Positions 1-20,000 of a stretch of DNA of 20,000 nt are shown here, one piece after another. How positions within the stretch are numbered: position 1 is the first letter of the stretch; each line of letters begins with the position of its first letter. The stretch is taken from NCBI GenBank assembly GCA_008632985.1, contig QPGO01000052.1:430219-450218 (forward strand), given 5' to 3'. The stretch comes from Psammoneis japonica (taxonomy: Eukaryota). Position numbers and translations under genes: made by a program. The notes beneath the pieces are model-generated. The model was given only the letters and a program-made list of their open reading frames with translations. It made no database searches and was not told the DNA's origin.

Positions 1-587
1 TCAGCCTTGGTGGTTTCCGGATTAAATCTATATTTTGCCCGTACATCCGGTGGAACACCCGGGAACATTTGAGCCAATCGATACATTGGTCCTAAATCGC
101 TTAGTTTGACCGCCTTTCGCGTCACAACGTCCATCACCTTTTGACCCTGTTCAATCATTTCAAAGCCGGTTTCGTCATCCACAATAATCCGCGACACTTC
201 AGGCCGCTCTGACTTTTCCTTCGCAATACGATTCCCGACCGTGGAAGCGCCACCAGTGATACTGTCAGCAGCAGTTGGTTCTTCTGGAGCAGCATCGGCG
301 TTGTCGTCGTCTTCGCCAATGTACACTGGATCGTCTCCAGCAGCACTACTCCGGGTAGATGCCGCAGTGTCGTCGTCATCATCGTCGAGTAGAACTTCAC
401 GAAGTCGCTTGTTTCGCATCTCTTGTTGTTGTTGTTTTTTCTGCTGTCTACGAGCTCTGCGATTCATGGCAAATAAGGTAGTTGTAGTGAAGGGCTGACT
501 ACGAGTAGGCGGCGAGAAGGCTTGACATGATTGACTGCAAAGCCACAGCGTCAGCACGCCGCTTAATGCCATCCATCTCCAACTCAT
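1..587 (-). CDS. Plastid-targeted protein of unknown function (5' part; runs off window start)
   Basis: Hand translation from ATG at 587: MSWRWMALSGVLTLWLCSQSCQA-FSPPTRSQPFTTTTLFAM...IIVDDETGFEMIEQGQKVMDVVTRKAVKLSDLGPMYRLAQMFPGVPPDVRAKYRF. Open to base 1. Signal peptide, then A-F cleavage (ASAFAP-like), then an S/T-rich transit peptide. Absent from the ORF track because there is no stop in the window. Confidence 0.75.
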   Translation of the reverse strand, partial: MSWRWMALSGVLTLWLCSQSCQAFSPPTRSQPFTTTTLFAMNRRARRQQKKQQQQEMRNKRLREVLLDDDDDDTAASTRSSAAGDDPVYIGEDDDNADAAPEEPTAADSITGGASTVGNRIAKEKSERPEVSRIIVDDETGFEMIEQGQKVMDVVTRKAVKLSDLGPMYRLAQMFPGVPPDVRAKYRFNPETTKA

Positions 588-1848
588 GATTTATAAGCAG
601 AAAAGTTCAGGAACAACGGGTAATGAAGAGGAACGCAAGGTACAGTATCGAAAAAGCAGGAAGTGTACACTTGATGATGTTTCACCATCGCGCTCATCCA
701 AGCCAAGCAAGGTTTCAACGAAAAGATGCCATTGACGAGTGACGCATTCAACAAACCCGGAGTTAGATTTTATGTGCGGTCACAATCGCATTCCACGTGT
801 TACACAATAATTACATCGGCTCATAGCCAATAAGACAGTGTGAATGCTATTCTTTGAACTCTCTACTCTTTGTGTCTACCTGCTACTGTTTCCATAGCTT
901 GGCAGGGAAAGCGAAACTCCGGGGAAAATAGTAGAAGATGGGAGGAAATGCTTGACTTTCGTGTACTACTGTAGCTCTACATACGTGATGTAGCGAAAGA
1001 CTACACTCTTGTATTATCTATCGGAGAACTGCAGAACTTTCGAGTCTTCAATTTTAAAGAAATGTGACATTGTAACTGGAACAATGTCATCATTCATCCG
1101 CAAATGCATTCTAAACATTCTCCTTTTTCTAGTTGAAACATGGCGATGACGTGCCATTGTTAGATCGGAACGACATTGTGTCGCTCGCTGTTGTGCGACC
1201 GTGGCCGCTGATCCATGGTGCTCTGCGCGACAGTCGTTAGCATTGCATTCCGTTGGAGCAGGTGCGATGTTGTCGCGTCCATCTAGGCATACATGAGAGG
1301 GATTCGCCAAAAGTCAGAGCGCAAGTGTGAAGCAAAATATAGAATACACAGGCTCGTTGGAAGGCTCTGTCGATTCAACCACGAGTTCTGGCGTATAGCA
1401 TAACTCTTAGTTGGCACGGAAGGGTCCTCCTCGAAGCGACGTGACCGCGCCGCTATGCCGCTCCGTGCGCCAGGACCAGCAATGCTGCAAAGATAACGCG
1501 GTTCTGTCCCATCTCACTCTGATGCTGCAGACCCAATATTTTCGAATGGCCTGTCGTTAACAGCTTACTCTCGACTGACACTTTAGAAACGGGTCATTCT
1601 GAGACAGCAACGATGAAGTCGACGGTGCCCGGACTTGTTGATAGACACCAGTTGGGGAAAAACCTGCCATATAAATGTCATGTTCATCTCCAACAAGAAA
1701 GTGTGCGTAGCTTGACAACTGTGGCCATCATCCAACTAGGCAGGTAATAGGTGTTAGCAGCAGAAGGCGAGACTTCAGATTGACCCTGGCAATGACTGGT
1801 CGAGCGACAGAGAGAAATTCAAACTACAATCTTTCCATAAACGAGTAC

Positions 1849-2676
1849 CTAATGATTGGCCTCCTCCATAGCTTCGTCCGCGTCGTCTTCTTCATCTTCG
1901 TCTCCTTGAGGAGCACTCCACCACGTCGTCAATCCAAGTCCGTCCTCACAGATGGAGCCGACAATATGCATGCTCGCTGGTATCTTTGAATCTGAAAGAT
2001 CTAAAGAAGAGCTTCTCTTTCGAACGGGACGATCTGGAAAGCTCTCTGAAGAATCCTTTGGGCTATTTTCATCTCCACCGGTGAGAGACTTTCTGTCCAT
2101 AGATGTGAACAAAGACGATTGGGCTGTTGTCGTTGTGGTAGCTTGTACTCCCTTGGCGGTGTTTGTCACTTGAGTAAAATTGATGGACTTGACTTTGAAC
2201 CGTATCTGTGCACCAATATCCATTTCAAATCGATTTTCTTCAGCCGCTTCTCCAGTACCTTCTTCTTCGTCGTCGTACTGAGGAGTCCAAACCCATAGGC
2301 CTGATTCCTTTTCATACTGACTAGGACGAAGCATCCAATAAGCTGGGATGAAGACATCGTCAAAGAATCCCAAACTGACGCGGATACCATCTTGTGTACT
2401 TTTCGATATTGTTCCGAGACAGACCTCCTCGACAAAAGGCCGAAACACCACCAGTCGAACAATGACTTCATGATGTGCCCCTCCGTCCCCAGCCACACAG
2501 ACACCGTCTCCAATTTCCAAGGCATCCCCATACCGACAAATCACCAAACCTACGTCCATAATCACGCGGTTGGGGTACTTTTTGTCCATCTCGCCATGAA
2601 CTGAAGTCAAAGTCGGCTGTGCCAGCAGTGACGGAGGAATCCTTACCGTGTCAGCGACCGTCGTTAACACAAACAT
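1849..2676 (-). CDS. RPC8: DNA-directed RNA polymerase III subunit RPC8 (C25; Rpb7 family)
   Basis: MFVLTTVADTVRIPP...NRVIMDVGLVIC...GDGGAHHEVIVRLVVFRPFVEEVCLGTI...GIRVSLGFFDDVFIP...LWVW...IRFKV...IVGSICEDGLGLTTWW matches the POLR3H/RPC25 pattern end to end. First ATG is at 2676 (the ORF track starts at an upstream TTG). Normal Tyr and TA content. Confidence 0.95.
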   Translation of the reverse strand: MFVLTTVADTVRIPPSLLAQPTLTSVHGEMDKKYPNRVIMDVGLVICRYGDALEIGDGVCVAGDGGAHHEVIVRLVVFRPFVEEVCLGTISKSTQDGIRVSLGFFDDVFIPAYWMLRPSQYEKESGLWVWTPQYDDEEEGTGEAAEENRFEMDIGAQIRFKVKSINFTQVTNTAKGVQATTTTTAQSSLFTSMDRKSLTGGDENSPKDSSESFPDRPVRKRSSSLDLSDSKIPASMHIVGSICEDGLGLTTWWSAPQGDEDEEDDADEAMEEANH

Positions 2677-2917
2677 TCTCGTGAAGAACAAAAATCCTTC
2701 TTGTGCTGTTGACCGTCTGAAACTTTTCTAACCTTGTATATCACTACTCTAGCTAGTGATACTTCCGTTCTACCACTTAGATACAGCCAACGTCATGCCA
2801 TAACTGCAACAAGATAGAGTCGGGGGCAGGTTCCAGGGTACATACGATACGGTACGTAACGAATTTTCATTGACCACTCAGTGGTTGGTGATTGCAGACT
2901 TTTTCGTGTCGGTCCGG

Positions 2918-2941
2918 CAGTCGGGCAGTCGGGCAGTCGGG
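2918..2941 (+). repeat. Tandem 8-mer (CAGTCGGG)x3
   Basis: Directly visible: cagtcggg cagtcggg cagtcggg. Confidence 0.9.
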
Positions 2942-3764
2942 TTGTCCGTCTGAATTTGAAAGTGTGTCCCTCGGATTTTGGAACGGGATGGGTTGTTTAG
3001 TACAGATGAATTCTTCGGATTCGTAGAATGATCATTGAGGACATGAGAGGTCGTGGGGACATCCTAAAAAATCGATAAATTCCCTACGACGGGTACGTGG
3101 CACGGTTTTTCAGGAGAGCTCGAAAGTTCTCAAAAATTGGGATTGCCGGCGTGGCATGTTGAAAAATGTATTTTAAGTTATAAACAAAGATAATTAATCG
3201 TGAATTCTACACGAAACAGTCATATTTGGGAAAACATATCGAACAATAAGTGAGTTTGTGCGATGCGCTATTATGGCGATAAATTGGAAAAAAAAGAGTG
3301 TCCGTGCACCTCGCTACAGCCCCAAAAATGGCATGAGACATCAAACATGACGGTCATCCGCGTCACCGGTGCGGTGGCCACGCCACTCAGCCGCCACAAT
3401 GCCGGCCCCGGCGGCAGGGCCCTGCGCACGTGCAGGCAACACAGCATGCAACGGCACACACCCACACCCACAAAAAGAAAGACAAGTGGTCAATGCTCCC
3501 CGCAGGCCTGGTTTGTTTTGATGAAGAACGAAGACCAAACATTGATTGAAGATGCCGTCATTCAGTGCGTGCTTGCTGGTGGCGAAATCCGGGGCGCGCA
3601 GCTATGGGAGGGGCACGCCGTAGAAATCACGCAGGGACGAATTTTCTTGGATCGAAACGAGAGTTGCCTTAGTCGACAGAGGGTGTTACGGCGGTCTTAA
3701 AATGGGGGGCAACTTTTTCATTTGCCTTGCATTCGTCGTTGACGAGATCGATGAAGTGACCACA

Positions 3765-4200
3765 ATTTTCCCGTGCTTTGCCGTGCAATCATCACTGAAA
3801 ACATTTCGATTTTCCGAAAATCCTGCTGTCGCTCGTTTGCAGTTTTGGAATGTCGCTGCAACTTTTGTCATGCCGACACTGGCCAATGTCAAAAGCAGAG
3901 GCTCTCACGTCTCTAACAATGCATCCCCAAGTCACCTGACTCCGCAGTTGGAAAGAACGTGAAACGGTGCTTTTGTTGCTTTTGCCGCACTTCACCATGT
4001 GATCACGACTGAAAATCCTTGATGTCTCGTTTGCAGTTTTGGAGTGACATTGCGGCCATTGTGATGCCAAAAGTGACCAACATCAAAAGCAGAATCAATC
4101 ACGTCTCTGACAATGTGTCTGCCACTTCAGCTGCCTCTCCAGTTGCAGAGAACGACCAATGGCATCTTTCTCTCTTTCGCCGCACTTCGCCGTGCAAAAA
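3765..4200 (-). repeat. Degenerate tandem repeat, unit about 195-210 nt, about 2.3 copies (probably a repeated protein module)
   Basis: 3816-3925 (gaaaatcc...ctcgtttgcagttttggaatg...tcaaaagcaga...cacgtctctaacaatg) aligns with 4011-4118. Minus-strand readings are IVRDVRASAFDIG..PKLQT and IVRDVIDSAFDVG..PKLQT. An HG(E/K)xRxx motif occurs three times. Confidence 0.75.
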
Positions 4201-4289
4201 TCGCCGAGTGCCAACACACGCCCATTTCGCGGTGGAACTGAGTTCTCATTTCAAAGCACAATGAGCTCCACCATTTTGTTCTTTCTGCT

Positions 4290-4950
4290 TGTCTGTTCAG
4301 GACATGATTCTTTGCAGCTTCTGATGTTGGTGTCGGCAGAGGCGGTTTGATGGCAGGTTTGGAGAAGACTTTGTCACAAGAGAATGCAAGGCGTGGCTTG
4401 TTTGCAGGTTTGCCACGGGGCTTCCAAGGCAGAGGCAAGCCCTTCTTTCTGGCATCAACGCGTGCTCTTTTGTGCACTGTTTGCTTTGGCATCTTGTCTG
4501 TCTCATCCTTGGTCTTGTTGAACATGAAGATTCTCGCATGGCGCCCTCGTGTCATCGTCTGGTTCATCGACAGCAAGCATTTCCTTCGCATTCATGACAC
4601 CAAAATCCATTCCAGACTCAAGGATTGCATGACTCAAGAACACGGCATGAGCTGATTTGCGGATTTTCGTTGCTCCTCGGAATCCAAATGAAAGGTTTGA
4701 ACTGCCACCAACAACCTTTGCATGCGGACACCGTTCCTTGATGGTCTTTGTTGTTGATGAGGTCGACTTGCAGTTGGCATGTTCCTCCATGCCGGCGCCA
4801 ATTGTCGACGCATTGGGGTCACACACAATGTCTGTGCCCACTTCGTGAATGTCGTGCGAGCGCTTGCATGTCCAAACCTTGTCCTCCTTGGTCGCTGCAT
4901 GTCCTTGTTCGTCAAATGCCATGTCTGCTGCTGCAGCACCGTGTTTCTCC
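4290..4950 (-). pseudogene. METH: Cobalamin-dependent methionine synthase fragment (pterin-binding domain), frameshifted
   Basis: KHGAAAADMAFDEQGHAATKEDKVWTCKRSHDI...DIVCDPNASTIGAGMEEHANC...IKERCPHAKVVGGSSNLSFGFRGATKIRKSAHAVFLSHAILESGMDFGVMNA corresponds to MetH motifs MAFDE.GQA, CKRSY, DPN.LTI.TG.EEH..Y, SGG.SNLSF.FRG, GMDMGIVNA. The downstream boundary (continuation in another frame) is approximate. Confidence 0.9.
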
Positions 4951-5719
4951 AACCATGTCCAACCACCCATTGCTCTCCACAATGTGCCTCTCAGTGGCGC
5001 TCTTCCTGTTGACATGGCCGAAAACGCAGTGTTGGAATGCTTGTTGCTTGTCGTGAACTTGGAGTCGATCGCTCTCAATGTCTCAGAGTCCAAGAGCCTA
5101 AAAATCCTTTTCTCAGAGCTTTCATCATGACAGCAAGTTGTTTGCTGACAGACCAAGTCTCTGTGGTCTTTGTTTCCAGCACATGACAAAACCATTTCTC
5201 GCGAAGGTGTCATTTGGATGACGGCATGATGTTCAGATGAGATGTGAGGTCATTTGCAGACATTTCAAAATCACTTGATGAAACTGCCACCAAAAATCAT
5301 GCTTCGGAGCCCCTCTCCTAATTCGATGACGGTGGACACGATGGCATCAAATGTGCATCTTTTCACGTTGATCCTGAGGGTGCAAAAGCAATGTGGTGCG
5401 AAACGGCATGTTTGTTGGTCAGGTGTCGACATTGTTTTTAATGTCTCAACCAAATCGTTGTTCGAGACAGCCCCTTGCAGCATTCCACCTGATGAGATGA
5501 TGGCGGATGCAACACTTTGAAGGGCTGTCTGAAACAGTGATTCTGAGGGTGCGAAAGCGATTTGGTGAGAAACGGCAGGTTGACTTGGTGGTCGCTTGGC
5601 AAACGTTGTGGCGGGAGTTGGAAGCCCGGCCTTGTGCAAGCACTGGACATTGAATGTTTCAATGCAATGAGCAGGAACAACACTCACGCGGAATGCAATC
5701 CTCACAGCTGCTGACACTC

Positions 5720-6997
5720 AAACCATGCAGAAAACCCCATGCAGCAAACAAGTGCACAGTCTTGCGAAGCATGTGAGTCCCGACTTGGAACTTGTTGGGG
5801 TCGCGACCAAGGTTGGTGATAATCAGATGCTTCACAATGGTCAGAAAGGAAGCACAAGCAATGTGCGCCTGGCTGTCAAGGCCATCTGGAGCAGCCTTTT
5901 TCAATGACGTCAAGGGTGGAGGAAACAAATGTCTGCCGTGCATCTCACACACACACAAACATGCCACAGCAGGTGGCGGATGGGACAAAATTCGGGGTTC
6001 TTGTCGTCAGCACAAAGAACCAAACAAACAGGCACTTTGTCCGATTTGCCTGGTGCTTCCACTGCCACTGCATTGCACGCCCTTCTTGTGGATGACCCAA
6101 AGTTCAACCAAGGCATCTCGCTCATGTTGTCTTCATTTTTGCAACTCTTTTTACCTCTTGGATGAAAAGAGTTGCTGAAGTTAAGTGCCTTGAGTGATGC
6201 AATTTCATCAGCGTGCAGAAACAATTTAATGCTGAGCAATGTCATGAGACATGTCTGAATTGACACGACATCACCCCAAAACAGCAGAGTGTTGCACAGT
6301 TGCTGCACTTCATCAGGAAGCAATTGCCCGTTGCCCTTTGTCTCATGTGTGTTTTTCCTCAGGTCAGCCAAAATTTGCACCATGACTTGACATTGACATC
6401 GCTCATGATGTTGCCCTGTGAGCAAAGTGGCAAATTCATCACATGATGGATGCAAGAACAACATTGTCCAGTCTGTGGCTGTGCCGGGATGTCCATGGTG
6501 GGGGCAGCATCACCAGCGCTCAAGTCATTGTTGGAAGGGTTGCTCATCCGTTTTGTGGCTGACAACTGCAGAAGTGTGCCGAGGTTGTGATTTGATGATG
6601 ATTCGCTCTCAGGACAATTTGACACACAGGGGCCCTGGCATGTCAAGTGGTGGTTGTGGAGAAAGTTGACGGCCATGCTCATTTTGCAGCACAAGCCAGG
6701 GGATTTCCACCCACCCAAGACAAATGTGGGAGTGCCAAAAACGTCGCACACAGGTTGCAATGTCTCGGGGCGAATGAGTGGCGTGCCGAGGTTGCTGAAG
6801 TGAAAATTGAGGTGAAGCCGGAAGCTCTCCTTCTTGAACGGCAGTGGATTCAATGGACAACAAATGCGATCACAGAGCACAGCAGACTGATGACACCCAA
6901 CAATGAAAAAGAACTTTCTCATTTCACTCCACAAATTTTTGCAGCTTCTTGCTGTGTCTCTGTCAAGCACACAGCTGGGGTCATTGCGGGGGATCAC
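5720..6997 (-). mobile_element. Degenerate tyrosine recombinase ORF, Crypton-like transposon relic
   Basis: Across three frames: LLSIKLFL(H<R)ADEIASL (box I Arg), GKSDK (catalytic Lys), EFCPIRHLLW, GTHMLRKT (HxxR), plus an N-terminal region TARSCKNLWSEMRKFF...GGWKSPG. The catalytic Tyr box was not found (truncated). Family assignment is inference. Confidence 0.7.
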
Positions 6998-7295
6998 ATG
7001 GTTGCTGTTTTTTCAAGTCAAGTTTTGTGATGAGAGCACCCAACTCCATCTCACCTTTGCTGGCAATGGCATCAGAGTGCTGAAGTTTGAGCAGCATTGG
7101 CGGCACTTGGTGCCGTTCATTCTGTGCAATGGCAGTGGCAGCAGCAGAGCATCTTGCCATTTTCAGTGTGCAATCGCAACGACGGCAGTGTTGTGAGAAT
7201 CAGCACGCCAATGGGTTTTTGAAGTCATTTTGGTGCACCACATGTGACCGTTGAAGACACAATGTCTAAAACATTTTTAGCCAGCTGCTTGTGGC

Positions 7296-7500
7296 GGGCA
7301 CAGTGCGGGCACCATGGGCACTGCCGGGCCGGGCACTTCTGCATTTTTGCACACTAAAATTGCACTGAAGATTCCACATGTGCGACGACTGTGCAGAGAA
7401 TGACTCTGAGAGCTGCAATGATTCCTGTTGTCATGTCCCAAATTTTGCCGCGTGCCCCGAATTTTGCCGCCAGCAGCCAGCCAGCAGCCAGCAGCCAGCC
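7296..7500. repeat. Short repeat clusters: GGGCAC x4 (7296-7336), AATTTTGCCGC x2 (7441-7470), (C)CAG/CAGC array (7471-7500)
   Basis: Directly visible; possibly subterminal repeats of a transposon. Confidence 0.6.
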
Positions 7501-8824
7501 ACGCACATTTCACGCGTGCAGCACCCCGATCATTGGTGTTTTTGCAATGTGCGTGGAAAGCAGTGCAGTTTGTGGCACTGTCCAACATTGATTTGCATTT
7601 CAGTGCTTTGTGCTCTTGCTTGTTGGGTGAATGACACACAACAAATCCAAAACAACAGCACAATGATGTGCTTCAGTTCTGTTTGCATTCATTGCTCAGC
7701 TGTTCCCAAGGGTGTGCAACCATGTGACAGCCTGTCGGAGACAGCGACACCAACGTTGCATGTGTTGTGTTCCTCAGAGATCAGGAAAGAAGCAAGTTTC
7801 AACAAATGAGATGCACAAAACACATGTTGACTTTTGTTCTCTTTTGCCGTGTTGATAATGCGGGTGTCAAAGAGCCCAATCTTGTTGTCCTTTGCTGTTG
7901 GTTTGTCTTCATTGTGCTTTGAATTCTTGAGCTCTGAACTGAATTCACACAATGACAGCACGGCCCAACAATGTCTTGCCTCACACATTGCTTGCTTCCG
8001 TTTTCATGGGTTGTGTGTTGTGTTGTCACCAGTGTTGCTGCACTTGCATGCAGACCATGCTGAGATTCCCTTGGTCAGTGCAACAGACATTGAGCCAATG
8101 TTGCCAGGTTGTCCAGAGTGACGATGCGGTGGCTTGGACAGCTGATTCATTGTTCAAGTGACCTTGGTGGTGCGCAGACATGCAATCAATCTTCTTGATG
8201 AGGATTCGCTTCCAAGTGTTCACATCCGGACCAACACGATGCAGTCAACACAGCATGCTGGGGCACTCCACATGCTTCAATGCTTTGTTTGCCAAAGAGA
8301 GCATCAAACTCTCAGGCAGTTCCTTGGTTGGCCAAGACAATTCTGTCTGTTTCTTCATTGACTCAAAATGTTTCATGGAACAATGCAGTTTCATCCTTTC
8401 TCAACTCATGAACCACCCCTTCCATCAGCGCACAAGAGCATGTTAGATGGGGCCATTTCTCACAACAATTTTGCGGAGCAAGAAGAATTGCTCACAAAGG
8501 AAATGTCAACAGAGCAGCTTCAAATCAAACTCACTTGGCTTGGGGATTTCCTCACAAAGCTGTCAGTGGAAGGGGGCGTGAAGTTCCGCTTGTGTTTGCA
8601 GTCTGAAGCATTGACAGCATGGCATGCAACAAGTTTGCAGCGTGGTTTAAAACGTTAAACTCATGCATGCCAAGTGCAACAGTGCCTTTCTTTAGATTTT
8701 GTCTCAATGAGCAATCTCTCCAGAAGAAAGGGCGGTTCAACCTTGACAACCCATGCACCCTCATTGGTTGCGTTGGCCACACAGTTTTTCCCATGAATGG
8801 CAAGCGAGTTGCCAATCTCCCTCA

Positions 8825-9200
8825 CTCACAGCCTTGGCCGCTGCGGCATCGGCCTTTCCCTTGCACTGGGCAAAGATGTCTCCAGAAGCACTGCTGCTCA
8901 ATGCTGTGACGGTTGGACCAACACCGCTCAGACAGGCACAGCATGCACCAGCATTCTCTGCAGCTTCAATCATGGGGAAAAGACAAGGACACAATCTTGG
9001 TCTTTGACAAGGTTGGCGCATTTTATCTTGAGCTCCCCATTTTAAATTGTCCAGCTTTCTGACACACAATGCATGAATCGAGAAAGCGACCCAATCAACA
9101 TTGAAAGCAGCATCTTCTTGTGCAGCGGCTGGGGCTTTGAGGCAGCTCCAGCAGCCGAACCCTTGCCGACAAAGTCCAGGACAAACATGGCCAGTTGCAG
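8825..9200 (-). pseudogene. thrB: Homoserine kinase (GHMP family) C-terminal fragment
   Basis: LQLAMFVLDFVGK.. / EDAAFNVDWVAFSIHALC..LKWGAQDKMRQP..LCPCLFPMIEAAENAGACCACLSGVGPTVTAL matches the HSK pattern DAVFN..R, D.lHQP.R, aGA.g.yLSGAGPT. Frameshifted. Confidence 0.82.
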
Positions 9201-9438
9201 TCATTGAGGCCCAAATCGTCCAAACAAATGAATCCACATTTCATCCTGAAGACCAAATGAAATGTGCCAGACTGCCAGGGTTGTGTCAGAGCAAGGTGTG
9301 TGCAGCATTGCAAGTTTCGTGCAATGTGGCAAAGAAATGAGAGCCATGTTCTTTTGCCGTGGAAACTGGATCTTCTTCCATGTTTCCCTGGATCCTTTTT
9401 CAGCATGTCATCCAGGAGGGTGTCTGGGAACTCACTTG

Positions 9439-9941
9439 GGGATGGATCTACGTCGTGCTGCGGTCTGTTTTTTGGGAGCTCGTAATTTTTATAAAAAGAA
9501 CCCGGACGCATCGCAGCAAATGCGTGCGTGTTCGCAAAAAAAATTCAGCGATGGGTTGAACTTTGTCCGTTCGCCAGACACCCTAGAATGCTCAAACGAC
9601 AGGTGTGGCCATGCGCGACTTTTACCTCAACGACTGCAGACATGTCCACAGCCAGTCAAATGCCATTCATCGGCATTTCCCGGAAAGTTGCCGCCAATCT
9701 CCCATGAGAAGCCCGATTTTAGCGAAAATCAGCGGTTTTTCCGACCTGACAAAAGGGCATGGGTCGACAAGTGGCATTTGAAGCGCTAAATGTGCAGCTC
9801 TCATAGCCGTCTAACAGCCCCTGTGAGGGTTTGACGAATGCACAAGTGTTCCGGGGTGTTCCGAGGCAGGTCAAAACAACACGGTGAAGTGCGGGAAATG
9901 CGAGCCATTTTAAATTAGACCGCAGCACGTAGATCCATCCT
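9439..9941. mobile_element. Non-autonomous TIR element (MITE), about 500 bp
   Basis: Left end GGATGGATCTACGT(CGT)GCTGCGGTCT (9440-9466) is the inverse of right end AGACCGCAGCACGTAGATCCATCC (9917-9940). No recognisable coding content. Retains more TA and CG than its flanks. Confidence 0.85.
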
Positions 9942-10393
9942 CAAAAAAGGATCCAGGTCCCTCACATTCTCATTGCGGTGGGATGCACCAGGTGAGGGGT
10001 TTGAAAAGCATGAATTTGTGCAGAGCATTTTTGAAAATTTGAGTGGTCAGCAGGTGCACATGATGATGTTTCGCTTCAACTTGCGCAGGCTGCAGGGTGA
10101 GGGTGCATTTCCCACATTTGTTTGTCCCTTCACAGTGCCAATTTGGCCAGCCTGATTGGGTTGTCCAACCGACACAAAAGAAGAAAGGTTCAGAGGTCTT
10201 GTCCACCTCTGGCCAGCTTGTCAGCAGGGGGTTTTAACCCGTTGCTCTGCTCTCAGGCAACCCAAAGCACCAACAGCTGTGGGTTTGGACGTGCCAGCAC
10301 AACTCTGTGGACCGGGTGGGAAGCTTGGCATTTGGCTGCAAACGGGACAGCACAGCCCAGCAGCTTCTGATTTGCAAGATGGTTTGAGACTTT

Positions 10394-10430
10394 AAGTCAA
10401 GATTCAAGTCAAGTTTCAAGTCATTTCAAG
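10394..10430 (+). repeat. TCAAG-rich tract upstream of gag
   Basis: aagtcaagattcaagtcaagtttcaagtcatttcaag immediately 5' of the gag ATG; likely the retroelement leader. Confidence 0.6.
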
Positions 10431-10475
10431 CTCACCCTCGACTCTAGCCAGTCCTGACACCCACCTGGTTGCAAC

Positions 10476-12000
10476 ATGGTTCTCACCAGGCAGCAACAAA
10501 TTGATGGCCTTGAGCACATTCTAGGCACTGTTTTGAATCAAGCCACAGACAGTCCACTGCGCTCTGCCCTCAACATTGACGGAACTGACTCGCACCAGGA
10601 TCTCTTCACTTTTGCTCTGACGCAACTGGATGCCCTGGTTTGCAACAACGGCGCCAATCAAATGCCCTTGCCATGTGGCTGCAAAGCACAGACAGCTGTG
10701 TTGATTAGTCTGCACATGGCAAAAGCGTGCAGCGGCACTGATGTCAGCAACAACCCCAACTTGTTCACACATGAGGAGTTTGCCAACCATCGTCTCAGTC
10801 CTGAGTGTGTGGCGTCCCTCTCCATGGGTGCAGCACCATCTGCTCCCACTCCTGGCTTGTTGCCACCCAAACCATTTGACCCCATGTGTGACTTTAAACG
10901 AAGCATCAAACGTGACCCACTTGCCTTCGCAACTCTCAAGTCCAACAAACAGTGGCACACGCAGCACACCTCCATCATCGCACAGGCCCGCTCCCAGGAC
11001 GTCGACCACATTCTTGATTTGACATGCAAGCCCTCTGCAGCTGAGGACAAGGCCCTGTTCGATGAACAACAGAAGCACATGTTTGCCGCATTTGAGTGCA
11101 TCTTGCAGAATGACAAAGGCAAGGCATTTGTTTGTGAACATGTCGGCTCCTCTGGTGCTCAAGCAGTGCATCGTGACCTGTCCAAGTGTGCCCTTGCATC
11201 TGCTTTTGCATCCCTGGAGTCCTTGACCCTTCTCATGTGCCTCGCCACTGCTTGCCTTGGTGATGGCACCTGGAAATTATCCACCCATGCCTTCACACTT
11301 TGCTGGCAGGACCAGCTTCACAAGTGTGAAGCTCTTGTTCCGAGTGTGGACCACTTCTCTGCTGGCCAGAAATGCGTCATGCTTGAGAACGCCGTTCATC
11401 CCATGGAAGAACTTTGTTTGGTGAAGAATCAGGCCAATCAGTTTTGCACACAGAATGGCAGAGGTCTTTCTCATGAGCAGTGCTGTGGGCTCCTGCTTTC
11501 TGCAGCAGCACAGTGCAACAGCACGTTTGCCCCCAAGATGGCTCCTCGTGCTCCAAGCCATGCCATCTGTGAACATGACCTGGCCCCCGACGACCCTGAT
11601 GACGATGCATTCTTTGACATCAACAGAGATGTTGACATCATTCAGGCTCATGCTGTGCAGACTTGCAGCAACTCCCTCACCAGGGAACAATGGTGTCGCA
11701 TCCCACCAACCATCAGTGCATTTGGGGCACCTTGCCTCAGTCCACCAAGGCCATCATCCTTGGCTCACGCACTGCCCATGCTGGCAACGGCCATGACTCA
11801 ATGGCAGTCAACCTGCACAACCTCTGTCTTGGCAGCAATGGCAGTGTCAACTTGTCAGCCAATGCTCACAATCTTGCGTTGCCCCCCACACCATCTGACT
11901 CTGTGATCGATGCAGCCGATGCTGACCCCATTCTGGCTCATCTCACCAGACGCAAGCCTTTGCCACCCGGCAACTTGCAACATCTCCTGGCACCTGAACG
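10476..12000 (+). pseudogene. CoDi-like gag
   Basis: 476-aa ORF with DFKRSIKRD..F.TLK..KQW, AQARSQDV..ILD, LFDEQQKHMFA, DKGKAFV, LGDGTWK..THAF.L.WQDQ, MLENAVHP, as recalled for diatom CoDi gag. Contains zero Tyr. Frameshift near 11700. Confidence 0.85.
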
Positions 12001-12249
12001 GCCTCCTTCCACCTGCTGAGGACTTCCAGAGGGTGGAATCCTTGTCTTCTTGCTCGATGTGGTGCATGATGTTGTTGCAGGCAAGGACTTCCTTGCGCTC
12101 ATCATTGTTGACAGAGCAAATGAACTTGACTGGTTCCAGGTTGTCTCCAATTTTCCAGTCATGGTCTTCAACAGCTTTGACGATGCGGGCTCTGTGGCAA
12201 TCAGGACACATCAAGCAAAAGAACAGGGATTCTGCCCTCTGGAAGTTTT

Positions 12250-13920
12250 GACATGTCATCTCACATGAAGGACCACTGAGACCTCATGATCCCTCTTGGA
12301 AAGGCTCAAGCTGCAACATCATGCTTGAATGGGAGAATGGGGAGATCACATCTGAACCCCTTGCCATCATTGCCAAGGATGATCCCGTCACCTGTGCCAT
12401 TTGTGCATGCGAGCATGGTTTGCTCAAAACCGATGGCTGGAAACACTTCTGGACCATGGCTCTGTGCCAGAAGAAGCTGTTCCGCATTGCAAATCAAGCC
12501 AAGTTGCGCTCCTTTTGCACTGCACCATGATGCAAGTGCGGGCATGAAGTGCCCCAGGACCACAAGCATGCCTTGGCCCTTGATGAGCATGATGGCAACC
12601 ACAAGTGGGGAGATGCAACAGGCCTCAAGATGACTCAGCTTGATGAGCATGAGGTCTTCCATGACTGCAGACATTTCAAGGACTCTGGTGCTCCATCAGG
12701 ACACAAGAAGATTCGGGTGCATCTCACCCACAATGTCAAACATGACGGATGGCACAAAGCAAGGCTTGTTGCTGACAGACACCTCACAGACGTGCCCGTT
12801 GACAGTGTCTGTTCCAGAGCAGCATCTCTCCGTGGCCTGCGAATGATGATCTTCCCAGCCAAACTCAACAAACCACAGAGACTTGGGCCACTGACATTGG
12901 GGGTGCCTGTCTCGAAGCTGCAACCAAGGAGAAACTGCACGTTGCAGCAGGCCCCGAGTTTGGTGAAGCTGGAAGGACACATCCCAACAGCAATCTTTTG
13001 TGCGGCAGAGTCATTGTTTCACAAATGCGTGGAAATTATGTCAGAACAGTGCAAGTGAAAACATGAAATTGTCTGTCCGTCTGCCCTTGGTGAATTTTAT
13101 TTCTGCGAAAAATGGACTTTGCTGCAAACTGATTGGGCGCATTTTAGAACAACACATTTGCAGAAATGCGCCTGATCAGCCAGCAGCAATGTCCTTTTTT
13201 GCAAAAGTTTTGAGATGACAACAGTTTTGGTGCAAAAACGCGCAGATTCTGCAGACGTCCACAAGCAATTCATGCGTTTTGCATCATGGGTCATTTTCAA
13301 AAGATTCCTGTTGTGTCATCCACAAGGCCTTGTGTAGACTCCACAGCTCTGGCCTCAGGTGGCATGAATGCTTTGCCTGTTGCTTGCATGCCGAGGGTTT
13401 CTTCCTGTGCAAAGCTGAGCCCGACATCTGGCTGCACAGGAATGGTAAACACTGCGAACACGTGGCAGTGCATCATCATGTGGGTGACCCAGCCTTTGCC
13501 ATGAAGGAACCCCAGGCTTTTGCAGACACTCTCATGGAGAAATGCAAGTTCAAGCTCAAGGGCACTGGACCATTGGAGTTCCATCTTGGTTGTGACTTCG
13601 CCCGTGATCCAGACGGCACCCTGTGCCTTGCTCCTTGCAAGTGCGTGAGTGTGTGGTTGACAACTGTGCGTGCCTCTTTGGGGAGAAGCCCGCACTGATG
13701 CACTTTTGCCCCTTGACAAGGGAGACCACTTTGAGCTTGTCACCTCTGAATCACTCAATCTGGAGGGCATCCACCAGTTCGAGTCCTTGATTGGTTCCCT
13801 GCAATGGGCCACATCTCTCGGTCACATGGACATTGCTGTGGCTGTCATGTCTCTGTCGAGCTTCCATGCAGCACCCTGTCAAGGCCACCCAGACTGTGCC
13901 AAATGCATCTGTGGAGGGGC
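12250..13920 (+). pseudogene. Copia reverse transcriptase (with upstream linker), interrupted at 12985-13313
   Basis: EWENGEITSEPLAIIAKDDPVTCA; HKKIRVHLTHNVKHDGWHKARLVA; VIHKALCRLHSSGLRWHE (KALYGL); EHVAVHHHVGDPAFAM (YVDD); KLKGTGPLEFHLGCDF; ESLIGSLQWA. Confidence 0.93.
12985..13313. mobile_element. 329-bp MITE nested in the Copia RT
   Basis: 16-bp TIRs CAACAGCAATCTTTTG / CAAAAGATTCCTGTTG (15/16 match). Removing it rejoins ELEGHI to VIHKAL to within 1 nt. Confidence 0.88.
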
Positions 13921-14034
13921 CCAACTGTTCTGACCTTCCCAAGCCCGTGTGCAACTGGGCCCAATCTGTGTGTGGGGAGGCAGAAGAGCTGCTCCCGCAA
14001 GACGTGCCTGAGCCACTTGGCAAGTTCATCACCA

Positions 14035-14495
14035 CAACACACTGCATCAATGTGAACTTGCTCCATTGCATGCTTGCCGATGCTCTGTCATCAGCATCCT
14101 TCATTTTCTCAACAAGTTTCGGCTGATTGGTTCTCTGAAAAACAAGCAACAGCCAAGACTGCCACATGTGGATCCAAGTTTGTTGCCACAAGGACGTGTG
14201 TTGGGCAGATCATTGATTTGCACATCCCTTTGCACCACCTTGGCATCCCCATTTGTGAAACATGTTTTGTGTTTGGGGATGACAAGTTGGTTGTGGACAG
14301 TGCTGCCATCCCACACTCCAAGCTGCACAAGCGACACACTGCCCTCTCATTCCACTGTGTGTGTGAGGCAATTGCCTCCGGTTCCCTTCAGCTTCATTTC
14401 ATTGAAGGTTCCCGCAACCCAGCTGACATCCTCAGCAAGCACTGGGGTTGCTCCCAAGTCTGGAACCTCCTTCATCCTCTGATGTTTTGGAACTT
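14035..14495 (+). pseudogene. Copia RNase H
   Basis: DWFSEKQATAKTATCGSKFVATRTCV (KKQ.TVET.TYGSEF), FGDDKLVVDS (GDN.SV), KLHKRHTALSFH, NPADILSKHWG. Confidence 0.93.
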
Positions 14496-14716
14496 TGATC
14501 CCTGGGCTCTCAATCACATCCATTGCTGTTGACCCCTCAAGTCTTTTGGCCCCCTGCAATGTCTCTGCATGGAGACTCATCTGCCATTTAGACAGCAGCA
14601 AGGATTTGTTGTTTTCTTCCACCCAGTCATCTTCATTTTCTGTCACAAATGTTTCAACACTTAAAGTTGTGCACATGAAATTGCACACACCCAAAAGAAA
14701 TTGTTTGGCACAGCCG

Positions 14717-16760
14717 TCAATGTCTGTGCTGCAGAATTGCAAATGCAACCGCAGCTCCCACCGCCGCTGCAGACACAATCCAAACCATCTTTTTCACATG
14801 TCCATTGCCCCTGTCCTTGAGATCGGATGCAATCATCTTGACACAAATGGGATGACAACAGTCTTTCTTCTGAAAAACGCATCACCGCCAATGACTTTCC
14901 CATTTTTGATTGATGTGGGGAGCGGCAAAGAGAACAAACAAACTTCATGCAGCCCTGTGTTGTTGTCAGACACACAACGACAAGGAGGATTGCTTCATCT
15001 CCTGGAAAAACAGTTGGAGGAGTGAACAAAATGGGCAAGAAAAACCCCCGGCACCTGCACGCGACCAGAGATGCCTCGGCTTGTTGCACATGCAGCCACC
15101 GCAAGCTGGCAGCATCAAAACAGAATTTCTGAGTTTTGGCTTGCCGCCATGCCACACTTTACATTCATTGCCGCAATTGCATCTGCTGTGAGCAGAAGTT
15201 TTTGAGTTTGAGACTGTGTTGAATCAAGAAAACATGTGACTTGGCCTGTGGCCCAGTTTTTCAGATCCACAGCAGGCAGCATGCATCAATGACAGTCAGC
15301 TGCTGACCACAAACTTGCCAGATCTTCCGCAGCTTGCACGAGACTTTGATCAAAGTTGGGCACTTCAGTTGGCATGCTGGGCAAATGATGCCACCACTCC
15401 TTCCAGTTGACATCTGTTTCAGGAAACTTTGATTGGAAGAAATCGTGAAATTCAAAAGACGCAGCCGTCTTGTGCGCGAACTCCTTCATCTGTTCCTTGA
15501 AGGAAGTTTTGAATTGCTGCCTTCCAACTTGGCATTCAAGACAGCACAAGAGATTGAAACCTTTCTCATGTGGTGCTGATGAAAATGCATTGTCTGGGTC
15601 TTCATCACCCAAAATGGGCACCAGCCTTGTAAAATCCTCCGGCATGAGATCTGTCCAGATCAGGCTTTCCACCCCCCAATCCCATCAAAGTTGAAAAGCT
15701 TCTCGTCCTTGGAGACTCAAGTAATGATCTTGCATTGAAGCCACATTGTCCATCCCTCATTGAGCCAAAAGTGCTCCCATGCAGCATTGGTGACGTAATT
15801 TGCTGTCCATGAGTGAGATGTCTTGTGTGCAACCATGTTGGCAACAGACCAATCTCCAGCAGCCAATGGAGTTGGTGCAATGAAAGTGAGACATGGATTT
15901 TCCATCCCTCTGCATGGAAACAAGGGTGGCAAGCATGACAAACCATGTCTGCCCCAAGGACAACGCACTCCAGTTGTTGCTTCTGCCATTGTGAGAAACC
16001 CTTCCATTTGAGCAAATTCACAAGCAGCCACTTCCACTGCACTGGGTTTGCTCCAGATGCAGCACTGTTCCGGAGATCTTCACACTCTTCAAATCTCCCA
16101 CTGCCAGTGCCAATGAGTGAGATGGCAGGGCAAATCCATGCCCAAGTTGTTTGTCCGTTCTCAGCAGAGTTGCTTTGGTGCAGAGCTGACATGATGCAGG
16201 TTGCCCCACGCCGGCGCAGTTGCCCTGGCGGAGTGGGTCATTTTGATGCCCAGCTGATCTCAACATGGCACCAAGGATCGGGCATGAACAGCCTGACACT
16301 GCACAAACAAGCATGGATGTTTCTCACCAGCCATTTGCATTGGCGGGAGCCACTGCAGAGCACCAGATGCTTTTGTCATGCTGCGTGAGATTTGCATGTT
16401 TGGGTCCAAGCTGTCTCCAATGGGCATCACCAGCTTCTTTCCCAAATGAGCATGAGAACCACTCTTTAACTTGTGAGAGACTTTGGAACCGTCAACATGA
16501 ACAGAGTGAATCTCAAGGTTGCACGCATCCAAGCACAACAACTCTGCATCGGTGCAGATTCGTTTCACATTGTATGTTGCATCGGCTGCCAACACGGAAG
16601 CTGCAAAATCTGCACAAACATGCCAGATTGGTGGCCCAAATGAGTTCTCATGCAAAACTGCATTCACAATGTTTTGTTCGGATTGACTGATCATGCTGCA
16701 GTGCGGACATGCAAGTGTGCAGGTTGGACAATCATCACCCACACAAAGAATGTCATGCAA
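14717..16760 (-). pseudogene. LTA4H: Near-complete leukotriene A4 hydrolase-like M1 aminopeptidase pseudogene
   Basis: [43 protein letters not shown] (FPYGGMEN); VAHKTSHSWT..VTNAAWEHFWLNEG (HExxH...E); DPDNAFSSAPHEKGFNLLCCLE (PYEKG); NSEILF; QGCMKFVCSLCR (GRMKFVRPLYR); HPICVKMIASDL; hydrophobic tail, then TGA at 14717-14719. Multiple frameshifts and stops. Confidence 0.93.
15002..15089 (-). other. Putative 88-nt spliceosomal intron within the LTA4H-like pseudogene
   Basis: GT...pyrimidine-rich...TTTTTCCAG separates CQLAVAA from DEAILLVVV..TTQG, which should be nearly contiguous in the protein. Confidence 0.65.
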
Positions 16761-16773
16761 TGAGAAATGACAT

Positions 16774-17603
16774 TGTCAGCTGTGTTGGGGTGGTGCGGGT
16801 GCAAAAGTGGGCCGGATTCTGTGCATGTAGAACTCAATGTGCTTTCCACACAAATTGCCAAAGTTGTCTTGCCAACTTGAACCCTCTCCTGGACGATGGA
16901 GTGCTCAGATGCTCAGCTGCACTCTTCTTGTTTGTTGAGAGAAACTGCATGCTTTCATGTGCTTTTGAGAAGACACATGGCAAGTCCAATCAGAAAGGCA
17001 CCAAATCGCAACATTCAAGCTTTGAAGAGCTGCAGCAAACAATGAATGCATGAAAACTTGTAGTTTCTCTCAATGAACAAGTTGAGGGGAGTGCAGTCAA
17101 GCAGTCTGAACACTTTGTTGTGTGAAATGCTCAAGTTTCCCATTGTCTGGGAGAGGGCTCAAGTTGGCGAGGTGACTTTGGCAATTTGTGCAGAAAACAT
17201 GCCAAGTTCTGCGTGCACAGACATTTTACATGACAAAGTGCTCAGATGCTCAGCTGCACTCTTCTTGACTTGTTTGTTGAGAGAAATTGCACGCTTTCAT
17301 GCACTTTTGAAGACACATGGCAAGTCCAATCAGAAAGGCACCAAAATTGCAATGTTCAAGCTTTGAACAGCTGCAGCAAACAATGAATGCATGAAAACTT
17401 GCAGTTTCTCTCAACAAACAAGCCAAGAAGAGTGCAGCCAAGCAGCTGAGCACTTTGTTGTGTGAAATGCTCAAGTTTCCATCATCCGGGAGAGGGCTCA
17501 AGTTGGCAAGGTGACATTGGTGATTTGTGCAGAAAACATGCCAAGTTCTGCATGCATGGAATCTGGCTCACTTTTGCACCCATGCCACCTCAATGTGTTG
17601 ACA
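16774..17603. mobile_element. Fold-back element with long (about 190-210 bp) inverted arms and an internal tandem duplication of about 337 bp
   Basis: 16774-16960 is the inverse of about 17390-17603 (and partly of 17050-17221). 16900-17218 is directly repeated at 17237-17556. No recognisable coding content. Confidence 0.8.
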
Positions 17604-17787
17604 CAACAGACATGAACAAATGGATGTTCTCAGATGGTGGATGTCACATTTTTTTGATCAATTGACTTTGCTTCCTTTTGTGTTTGGAAGTCATTGTCTG
17701 ATTTTGGCAACATCACAGAGCACTTTTTGTCTGATCGCCAAACTGACATTCACAGGAAGGAAGGCCCACGCAGGCTTGCACTGGGCT

Positions 17788-18034
17788 GCACAAACTTGCA
17801 CAAACTTGTGCAGACTTGCAGCACGGACTTGGTGATTTGGCCACAAAGACATCCAACACCAACAAAACAGAACTTGCTTGTGAGCTGCCAACAGTGTCAG
17901 AGAAGTCATCATGTGCAACACGTGCCTCAAGAACATTCACCAGCAACAAAAATGTGAGCCCACGCATTGAATGGAAAGCAATCTGGTGTCTGACCTTGTG
18001 CCTGGCATGCACAAACTTGCATGAACTTGCATGA
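17788..18034 (+). repeat. Two short clusters of GCACAAACTT-like 10-mers (17788-17830, 18009-18034)
   Basis: gcacaaactt gcacaaactt gtgcagactt gca...; gcacaaactt gcatgaactt gcatga. Confidence 0.6.
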
Positions 18035-18524
18035 TGTCCCCTGACTGTTGTCCTCATAATTTGGTGATTGACCACATTGAAGAAAGACATTCAACCACTG
18101 TGGAAACAAACACAGAACATTGTCTGATGAAGCACATGTGCAGACCTTTTTATTTGACGGAGACAATGTCGCTCACAGGCTGGCATCATCATGAAGCACT
18201 CATCTTGCAGTGCTTGCTGATGAACAACAGCTGCCAATTGACTCAATTAACATGTGCAGTCACGCTCTCACAGTGTCAATTTTTAACATGGGTTGTTGAC
18301 ATTGAATGACAATGATTTGGTGCACTCTTGTTTTAAAAGCAACAGAGCATTTGCAATGATGCACATGTTCATGAGATGACCACATCCGGTGTGCCAAAGG
18401 AAAAAAACAGTTGTCAACAGGAATCACTGCACCTCTCAAGAGTCATTGTGCATGGTGCAAATTGTGCAAAAGAGTGCCCGCCAGAAACAACTGTTGTCAG
18501 TCTGCCCACCCTTTCACACTCAGA

Positions 18525-18647
18525 TGTCAACTTCTTGGGAAATCAGCTGAAATGTCATCTGATCAAAAGCACTGCTCTTCACCATGTGAGTCAGTCAAAG
18601 TGCCTTTGGTCAGATGGCATTTCAACTGAGTTCCCAAAAGGTTGCCA
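18525..18647. repeat. Inverted repeat, 49-bp arms with 25-nt loop
   Basis: 18525-18573 versus reverse complement of 18599-18647: 41/49 identical by hand alignment. Confidence 0.85.
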
Positions 18648-20000
18648 GCTCCAACCACCCTCTTGTGTGACACTGTGCTCATTTCTGCATGATTTGGTGA
18701 CTTTCCTTGTGTGAAATTCAAGCTGTGACTCTTGTGACATTTTCGAATGACCTCTGTTGAGATGAAGTGACGGTCTGGAAAAAATGTGACAGAGGACACT
18801 CATTCCCCCACAGCCAGCTACGTTGACAACCTCAACTGCAATGCCGGTGGGGTTTGCTCCCCAGCCAAGCAGTGCTTTGCTGCACTGGTCAAAATGGCCT
18901 CCCAACCTGCCACCGCACCTTGGGCCATTTTTCTCATGGCATCTCCTCCACGCTGTTTTGGTTCTCACCATTTATTTTGCTGCTCCCAACCTCAGCAGAT
19001 CTTTCACAAACACTCTTCCTTTCCCCTCCTGCCCTTGAGTGCCAGCCCCTTGCCTTCTCCTCCCTCTTAAACTGCCCTCAAATCACAACACAGCCCCCCA
19101 CATGCCACACCCACCCACTCGGTCATTCTCGATCCAATCATGCATGATCACTTTTGTGGCTCTGCACCACCCCTTCTTGGCACCACCAACTGTTGTCACT
19201 TTTTTCATTTTCAGTCTGAACCTTGTGCAGCCAATCAGCAGCACGAGCTTCCAGAAACAAGCCTGTCAAATCTTGTGTGAGAGTGTTCTCAGCAAAGAAC
19301 AGCAAGAACCTGGTGTTAGTCAAAAAACTCTCACCCCATCTGGAAAACACTGTGGCTCTTGTTCAGAACTTGCTTTGCTCTTGTTGAGAATCCTGTGTTC
19401 TTAACAAGTGCTCATCAATTGTGCACAAATCGATTTTGGCGATTGCTTCAACACACCAAGTGGGACTTGACACTCAATGAAAATGACTCTAATTCTTTGT
19501 TCAATCTTGACAAGATTGCAACCACAATGATTTTAAAATTGTTCAGCTCGCGTTCACAATTAATGCAACCTTCCAAGCAGGAAATGGGCGTCAATGAAAC
19601 TTCTCAACAAGGGTGCAATTGCAACTGCTTTGCAACATTGTTCATTTCTGACAACTGCAACATTCATTTGTTGCATTAAGATGCTCGCACATTGGCTGTG
19701 TGTTTCTTGCAATGTGATTGTGCCAGCTGTGTTTTGTCATTTCTGCAGTGAACGCATTTTTGCTTCCTGTTTCCTGCTCTTCCCTCTTTGGCTTTTTCCT
19801 GTCTCCTGCCGGTTCTCCCATGCTGCAGTGATGGCATGATGCTTTGCTCATTTTGCTGACCCTTGCATCCGCTCTCACTGCCGTGCACAAAATCCCGTCA
19901 TTCATTCCGTCGTCATGCCAGATTGCCAAAGCTTCACCTGCAAAGAAGAGAAAAGAGCTTGCAACAGATCAGAGCATTGCACATGTTTTGTTTTTGAGCA

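Follow-up and report, generated by a model that had tools for sequence, protein, structure and literature searches.

A TpA-depleted, transposon-rich compartment in the diatom Psammoneis japonica and its probable origin in TpA-directed transition mutation

The stretch of DNA analysed here (the window) is a single 20-kb piece of contig QPGO01000052.1 of the diatom Psammoneis japonica. Its first part (1-3319) carries genes of normal TA content and was used as reference. The remainder (3320-20000, hereafter the compartment) holds a dead Copia-type retrotransposon, a smaller insert and relics of host genes, and has lost nearly all of its TpA dinucleotides (TA) to CA and TG. The features of the window are the following:

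3316-20000, no strand: compartment depleted in TA, enriched in CA and TG and depleted in CpG; it continues past the window end and is thus at least 16.7 kb long.
4506-5249, minus strand: relic of a methionine synthase (METH) fragment, within a repeated unit (phmmer E 3.7e-28 to 4ccz_A residues 475-622).
8764-9240, minus strand: relic of a GHMP-kinase C-terminal domain (Pfam GHMP_kinases_C, 4.9e-05).
9441-9941, no strand: insert of about 500 bases resembling a miniature inverted-repeat transposable element (MITE), with 13-base terminal inverted repeats (sequence inspection).
10404-14517, plus strand: dead, 3′-truncated Copia-type long terminal repeat retrotransposon (tblastn span of 50 full-length polyproteins; Pfam RVT_2).
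10458-11903, plus strand: Copia gag frame (482 amino acids from stop to stop; nine homologues).
13219-13695, plus strand: RVT_2 domain of the Copia element (Pfam).
14819-16775, minus strand: relic of an LTA4H-like M1 peptidase, with frame shifts and TGA stops (Pfam Peptidase_M1, 2.3e-19, and Peptidase_M1_N).
16927-17556, plus strand: unit of about 340 bases present twice, at 86-91% identity (repeat families D1, D3, D4 and D5).
1852-2676, minus strand: Rpc25/RPC8, a subunit of RNA polymerase III, a live flanking gene with normal TA (Pfam RNA_pol_Rbc25, 1.7e-28).
3-590, minus strand: open frame cut off by the start of the window; its N-terminus resembles a signal peptide, and it contains acidic stretches of low complexity.

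TA occurs 73 times in the compartment, corresponding to an observed/expected ratio (o/e) of 0.07, compared to 148 times and an o/e of 0.64 in 1-3319; at the frequency of the gene part, 744 would be expected (dinucleotide counts, Fisher p=3e-63). Counting thus confirmed what the initial annotation had described, a near absence of TA over about 16.7 kb next to genes with normal TA, and the two stretches it had judged TA-free by eye proved to span 3915-5098 and 11279-13036. In all 500-base bins from 3501 onward, the TA o/e lies between 0.00 and 0.32. CA (n=1854, o/e 1.75) and TG (n=1770, o/e 1.74) are in excess, against 1.15 and 1.12 in the gene part, and CG is reduced (n=431, o/e 0.43, against 1.05). 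According to these counts about 600 TA and 570 CG are missing from the compartment and about 1270 CA and TG are in surplus, so that two sources, TA and CG, fit the CA/TG excess. The G+C content is nearly the same in both parts (0.49 in the compartment, 0.47 in the gene part). AA, TT and AT are not depleted (o/e 1.22, 1.24 and 0.90), AA and TT being even higher than in the gene part (1.12 and 1.05). GC-biased gene conversion is difficult to reconcile with this unchanged G+C and with the sparing of AT, AA and TT.

The depleted zone has a sharp edge at 3316. Twenty TA are found in 3001-3315, then only those at 3603, 3621, 3670, 3687, 3698 and 3914 before the first TA-free stretch, and the zone ends about 640 bases upstream of the Rpc25 start codon. 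The depletion is therefore regional and adjoins normal-TA DNA (0.07 against 0.64), as judged inside this window; to that extent the compartment-specific depletion proposed in the initial annotation holds.

We compared the relics with their homologues at the protein level. For the M1 peptidase, 78 homologues gave 153 conserved columns, of which 117 are unchanged in the relic. None of the six conserved Tyr is kept (three His, one Cys, one Gln and one Arg; p=1e-4), and all 12 conserved Phe and all 10 conserved Trp are. Comparison of the Copia element with 50 polyproteins yielded 598 conserved columns, of which 400 are unchanged. Here 0/32 conserved Tyr are kept, compared to 400/566 other residues (p=7e-17). 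They are replaced by 19 Cys, 8 His, 2 Val and one each of Trp, Gln and Phe, so that 27 of the 32 now read Cys or His. Conserved Arg is kept at 13 of 36 positions, with 10 Cys and 10 His in its place, and this Arg to Cys/His exchange (20/36) is the mark of CpG decay. Against nine homologues, gag has kept none of 12 conserved Tyr (7 Cys, 3 His, 1 Ala, 1 Phe), these columns overlapping the Copia 32 and not forming a separate set. The complete 482-amino-acid gag frame is devoid of Tyr, as the initial annotation had noted, and contains 28 Cys and 23 His; expressed as composition, it has 0% Tyr and 5.8% Cys, where its homologues have 3.2-5.1% and 0.4-1.4%. The six peptide motifs cited there were likewise all located: KALCRL at 13324, HVGD at 13477 and TCGS at 14164, and, on the minus strand, KRSH at 4854, FPCRG at 15906 and PHEKG at 15559.

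The changes were then polarised directly at the DNA level by comparing the window Copia with 47 TA-normal relatives from metagenomes. Conserved TA steps are kept in 0/31 cases and now read TG (21), CA (5), TT (4) or CC (1). Four control elements given the same treatment keep 16/19, 12/14, 24/30 and 40/43 of theirs (92/106 in all; Fisher p=3e-20). The direction TA→CA/TG was thereby established, and with it the polarised excess on which the initial annotation had staked its reading beforehand, since eleven other dinucleotides of the same element are kept at 432 of 540 sites. Conserved TC is kept in 27/32 cases, with one change to CC; conserved CG is kept in 2/10 (CA 5, TG 3). Losses in AC, AT and GT columns arise because these are neighbours of mutated TA (TAC→TGC, TAT→TGT, ATA→ACA, GTA→GCA). 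Altogether 26 of the 31 TA are now TG or CA, the changes being almost exclusively A→G or T→C on TpA. Error-prone repair synthesis of the Pol η type had been one of the candidate mechanisms in the initial annotation; it would have to be recruited to heterochromatin. A→G at TA does belong to its spectrum, which is A→G at WA. WA however also covers AA, and conserved AA is kept in 43/51 cases compared to 0/31 for TA, while the o/e of AA and TT rises in the compartment. We give this mechanism hardly any weight.

The polarised comparisons point to mutation and not to native composition, since TA and Tyr that were ancestrally present have been lost. The remaining explanations of this type (a base-calling, polishing or assembly artefact, foreign native composition, codon bias, or the gene conversion mentioned above) are in our view scarcely credible. 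In favour of an artefact, the sequencing runs found all come from one sample and one study. Contigs assembled separately from the public run X1 were compared with the window. At a depth of about 60, they differ from the gene part (1-1800) by 2 letters, and at the same depth from TA-free stretches at 7030-8350 by 9, at 17509-18567 by 5 and at 18569-19403 by 7. This agreement at single-copy depth argues against an assembly artefact, as does the recurrence of the signature in unrelated metagenome contigs and proteins (see below). Among 40 of 1492 window/contig differences listed, 35 fall in the compartment (18 CG↔TG/CA, 9 TA↔CA/TG and 8 other) and 5 in the gene part, all of other kinds. The 9 TA↔CA/TG differences may hint at a raised de novo rate.

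CA and TG are about equally frequent in the compartment, in agreement with the earlier suggestion that both strands are hit. The choice between CA and TG at adjacent sites is uncorrelated (same-neighbour count z -0.70; skew variance 0.98 in 300-base windows), and no strand-coordinated runs of CA or TG, as expected from a processive single-strand editor, were found in the compartment. Equal products and independent neighbours indicate that sites are hit singly, on either strand of resident duplex DNA, without single-strand sweeps. These data bear on a possible ADAR-like hyper-editing of double-stranded transposon RNA, fixed via reverse transcription and re-insertion. ADARs also accept a 5′ A, and AA is spared here. 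Editing of one RNA strand would moreover give one product per element, in contrast to the intermixed CA and TG observed, and the METH, GHMP-kinase and M1 relics and the spacers are hit equally, though they are not transposons. What speaks for such enzymes is their preference for a 5′ U and their A→G signature (as discussed in the available part of a recent preprint, 10.64898/2026.01.13.699255). Overall we consider this origin very improbable.

As to tempo, retention relative to the gene part is 0.11 for TA and 0.41 for CG, so that TA would be lost about 2.5x faster than CpG decays if gene-part values are taken as the starting composition. The MITE-like insert at 9441-9941 is only partly depleted in TA (o/e 0.42, against 0.06 and 0.10 in its flanks) and is normal in CpG (1.10, against 0.34 and 0.28); it is younger than its surroundings. 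Its partial depletion fits damage accumulating in place with time. One run contig joins 9941 to 18547, with only 25 flanking letters.

The TA that survive are not a random sample of contexts. Beyond 3900, 57 of 68 lie in TTA or TAA (TTAA alone 20); of 147 TA in the gene part, 53 do so. GTAC and ATAT contain no survivor. On the product side NTGC is commoner than NCAC (for instance, TTGC 10.25 and TCAC 5.22 per kb). The NTGC excess suggests a resolution of TAC to TGC, which we regard as a lead, and a favoured TAC and refractory TTAA may represent the wider context of the mutator. Since TpA is self-complementary, preferences at positions -2 and +1 are inseparable in survivors and products and appear only as a combined term.

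Summed contig depth was used to mark copy number along the window. High-copy DNA covers 2669-5336, 9339-14674 and parts of 16676-20000. The METH-bearing unit reaches 700-800, compared to about 60 for single-copy DNA, and depth over the Copia element is in the thousands, up to ~14674. Low-copy stretches (6004-9338 and 14675-16675) have a depth of 90-235, against about 60 in the gene part, and are as poor in TA as the high-copy ones. Unrelated relics, as the initial annotation had it, and also low-copy DNA are thus affected besides transposons. High- and low-copy DNA are equally depleted, but "low-copy" here means 1.5-4x single-copy depth and gene relics are duplicates. The repeat at 3204-3243 lies just outside the depleted zone and has TA in the window; another copy of it, in a 40-base loose contig piece from elsewhere in the same run, reads CA and TG at these sites, and TG for CG. 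Such a copy difference, in a single snippet, would favour position over sequence as the determinant.

The same signature was sought in other sequences. Among 49 metagenome loci carrying a related gag, 47 have a TA o/e of 0.52-0.85. They include CpG-poor loci: L046, L029, L025, L014, L040, L037 and L016 have a CG o/e of 0.02-0.20 and a TA o/e of 0.52-0.78. Neither membership in this transposon family nor methylation decay as such therefore removes TA, heavy CpG decay leaving TA intact in these other hosts. The two other loci, L002 and L042, are TA-depleted with sharp edges. In L002 the TA o/e is 0-0.30 over 751-3516, compared to 0.66-0.84 over 1-750; in L042 the depletion extends to about 1250, beyond which TA is normal. 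Frames in their TA-normal flanks gave no identity. The depleted parts carry intact Copia gag/pol frames without stops (L002 767-3514, L042 77-1195), on metagenome contigs.

In these frames TA is nearly absent where it is not needed for Tyr. Per 100 codons, L002 and L042 have 0-0.2 TA at codon positions 2-3 and 0.5-0.8 at positions 3-1, compared to 1.7-2.5 and 4.3-8.4 in four TA-normal relatives. Tyr-coding TA is only reduced to 1.9-2.2 per 100 codons from 3.3-4.2 in TA-normal relatives. In the two frames of L002, 19 of 25 TA belong to Tyr codons, and at conserved DNA sites L002 has kept TA in 10/12 cases. This pattern is what selection on a functional element would leave under steady TA-directed mutation and hints at an arms race, a hint that comes from contigs of unknown host. 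Two proteins among 120 reverse-transcriptase (RT) homologues, P0282 and P0314, are also nearly devoid of Tyr and carry Cys or His at positions that are Tyr in relatives. Both are fragments of an RT, stem from other data sets and contain 0.3-0.6% Tyr and 4-6% Cys. P0282 is 83% identical to P0388 but retains only one of the 14 Tyr in the aligned stretch, the others having become Cys (8), His (4) and Phe (1). In addition, Ile is replaced by Val at 7 positions, the outcome expected of T|ATN→T|GTN.

The loss of TA has also reshaped the reading frames. On both strands of the compartment we counted 845 TGA, 81 TAA and 33 TAG triplets. Because TA was lost, TGA is nearly the sole stop left, and long overlapping frames consequently occur in both orientations; the window has 53 frames of at least 100 amino acids, and 50 of these fall in the compartment. 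Such spurious frames in TA-less DNA are a trap for gene prediction, as gene callers may annotate them. Of 140 frames of at least 70 amino acids searched with Pfam, only GHMP, RVT_2 and M1 reached the family cut-off or were backed otherwise; other matches (E 0.005-0.009) were below cut-off, look like chance and were discarded. None of 132 compartment frames of 42-69 amino acids had a Pfam family. Among the relic identities proposed initially, M1 peptidase and RVT_2 were recovered by Pfam and METH by its match to 4ccz_A, the METH frame (4506-5249, minus strand) having no Pfam match; the proposed HSK was recovered at the level of the GHMP_kinases_C domain only. For the M1 relic, the Pfam matches lie in three broken frames over 15289-16775 (minus strand), and tblastn of the homologue P0121 covers 16361-14819, also in three frames. 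No long terminal repeats were found around the 3′-truncated Copia element by a repeat search of the window.

Within the repeats of the compartment, differences within the two pairs D3 and D4 (16927-17556) are by eye mostly of CG/TG/CA dinucleotides. A 90-base repeat pair at 3832-4115 (78% identity) likewise shows many CG/TG/CA differences by eye and one TA versus TG, at 3914. The use of CA versus TG pairs between duplicated copies as a polarity-free test was dropped, since an ancestral CG yields identical pairs. On the other side of the edge, Rpc25 is 57-70% identical to named diatom homologues (Fragilaria crotonensis, 68%, Ditylum, Cyclophora, Seminavis and Nitzschia), in agreement with a diatom host. 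The protein collection searched contained none identical to it, so that the host's own proteins are absent from that collection. The frame at 3-590 (minus strand) gave no Pfam family above cut-off and probably represents a live gene of normal TA content.

A process of the same kind was reported in 2026. According to the available part of a preprint by Mettrop et al. (bioRxiv 10.64898/2026.01.13.699255), regional TpA→CpA/TpG hypermutation occurs in mutation-accumulation lines of the chlorarachniophyte Bigelowiella natans. Two viral insertions received 231 of 302 nuclear mutations, 230 of the 231 being A→G or T→C, and the text states that the GC-biased mutations all fall on TpA. The rate is about 6e-7, about 1000x background, and is reached in only some lines. 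The same source describes windows low in TA and high in CA+TG, which form 124 clusters, and a set of 324 TA-poor coding sequences in which reverse-transcriptase and DDE domains are over-represented; its authors propose an ADAT2-like DNA adenine deaminase. Diatoms, stramenopiles and wider sequence context are not mentioned in the part available. The initial annotation, which knew of no described pathway, has thus been overtaken, though not for diatoms: our literature search found TpA→CpA/TpG mutation reported in this preprint only and none for diatoms. TpA-directed hypermutation is therefore known in general and, in the literature found, undescribed for diatoms.

In the window, the direction of change, its dinucleotide specificity, its action on both strands, its sharp edge and its reach into low-copy and non-transposon DNA are all observed. 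We think it probable that a TpA-specific transition mutator of the B. natans kind acts here in place, on a silenced, methylated, repeat-rich diatom domain. The compartment would be silenced transposon-rich DNA, with its Copia and MITE-like elements and its fragments of METH, GHMP kinase and M1 peptidase. The mutator would make transitions at T:A pairs only within 5′-TpA-3′, resolving sites singly and with no strand preference. TpA is its own reverse complement, so that the product is TG or CA depending on the strand that is hit. Decay of methylated CpG (CG→TG/CA) would proceed in parallel and feed the same two products, and the Rpc25 promoter and body would be spared. Targeting would follow a silenced chromatin domain or repeat status. 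As to chemistry, adenine would be deaminated to inosine in DNA by an enzyme needing a 5′ T, a reaction that would produce just the pattern observed. The tRNA adenosine deaminases TadA and ADAT2 act at U33-A34, which amounts to a 5′ T-like requirement, and a T-A-specific DNA adenine deaminase is our best candidate for the enzyme. The effect would be genome defence, because Tyr codons and reading frames are destroyed.

As the main alternative, the primary lesion might lie on thymine. A TET/JBP-type dioxygenase would mark T within TpA of silenced transposons as 5-hydroxymethyluracil (5hmU) or a further oxidised base, which would occasionally pair with G and lead to T→C. 5hmU or 5-formyluracil promotes T→C mutation, and such a modification would yield the same TA→CA/TG on both strands, the window data being equal for T→C and A→G. 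There is moreover a precedent in dinoflagellates, which like diatoms belong to the stramenopile-alveolate-Rhizaria (SAR) group: the accessible text of one report (PMC11572971) describes 5hmU made by TET/JBP homologues, enriched in repeats and silencing transposons, with a TA/TC preference in older work. TC however is unconverted in the window Copia, and a base-resolution map in Breviolum, in the accessible text of a second report (PMC11071213), gives no sequence preference for 5hmU. No diatom thymine modification of this type is on record in the literature examined. We regard a thymine-first route as unlikely, although clearly less so than RNA editing or Pol η-type repair.

Several points weigh against the proposed in-place TpA mutator. 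The putative mutator is known by its footprint, and its deaminase step could equally be T→C on the other strand. The compartment is delimited by a single edge against 3.3 kb of normal sequence, in one 20-kb window. The three runs, of a library type not on record, represent one sample of one study and may be the assembly's own data, possibly from the same platform. Targeting might go by homology, as in RIP, as well as by chromatin: host-gene relics are inherently duplicates, and even the low-copy DNA has 1.5-4x single-copy depth. Finally, the context hints leave the -2 and +1 positions unseparated, and their baseline is a small coding sample.

If the proposed mutator is real, TpA-directed hypermutation would be known from a second lineage, with P. 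japonica as the first diatom, and what had been a curiosity of one species would become a candidate for a widespread defence. The process is seen here at saturation: Tyr codons and TAA/TAG stops are gone and CA/TG approach twice their expectation. The search for the enzyme would move to a group in which CRISPR/Cas9 knock-outs are available, as made in Phaeodactylum tricornutum (PMC9998398). A natural enzyme that converts A:T→G:C at a defined dinucleotide of resident double-stranded DNA would also be of interest for base editing. A broader scenario, possible yet in our opinion rather doubtful, is that of an old TpA-specific defence against silenced or invading DNA, shared within SAR (at least Rhizaria and stramenopiles) and a functional mirror of repeat-induced point mutation (RIP). 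It would use a TadA/ADAT-derived DNA adenine deaminase, as suggested by the extended preference (TAC going to TGC, TTAA refractory), and live retrotransposons such as L002 and L042 would answer it by purging the TA not needed for Tyr.

Among known systems, fungal RIP resembles the process in the window in being a dinucleotide-specific transition hypermutation that inactivates repeats, acts on both strands and can spill to neighbours. Its chemistry and direction are opposite: RIP converts CpA to TpA and raises TA and A+T, whereas the window loses TA (o/e 0.07, with CA/TG at 1.75) at unchanged G+C. Decay of 5-methylcytosine at CpG co-occurs in the compartment, visible in its CpG depletion and in the 2/10 conserved CG kept, and gives the same products TG and CA. 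It cannot remove TA, as relatives with a CG o/e of 0.02-0.20 keep normal TA, and leaves the TA loss unexplained. The initial distinction of the signature from both RIP and CpG decay is therefore upheld, with CpG decay nonetheless running alongside. APOBEC3, acting on retroviral cDNA, and ADAR, acting on double-stranded RNA, likewise use editing against nucleic acids of mobile or foreign origin and recognise a short context motif. Their substrates are single-stranded cDNA or RNA and their products strand-coordinated runs, in contrast to the run-free, resident double-stranded DNA behaviour of the window. Dinoflagellate 5hmU, as far as the accessible text goes (PMC11572971), shares with the window a T/A-directed mark, silenced repeats, the SAR lineage and an older TA preference; it is an epigenetic mark with no mutational footprint reported there, and the TC context is untouched in the window.

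The closest counterpart is B. natans (10.64898/2026.01.13.699255, available part). In both cases A→G and T→C fall on TpA only, on both strands and in discrete foreign or transposon regions, and over the long term TA becomes scarce and CA+TG abundant, RT domains being enriched among the TA-poor sequences. The hosts differ, a diatom (stramenopile) in one case and a chlorarachniophyte (Rhizaria) in the other. So does the extent: the window is near saturation (TA o/e 0.07 over at least 16.7 kb), compared to 0.45 for the nucleocytoplasmic large DNA virus region of B. natans, whose clusters were defined at ≤0.43. The window further differs, relative to what that source describes, in that relics of host genes are hit and a strong CpG decay is coupled to the loss of TA.

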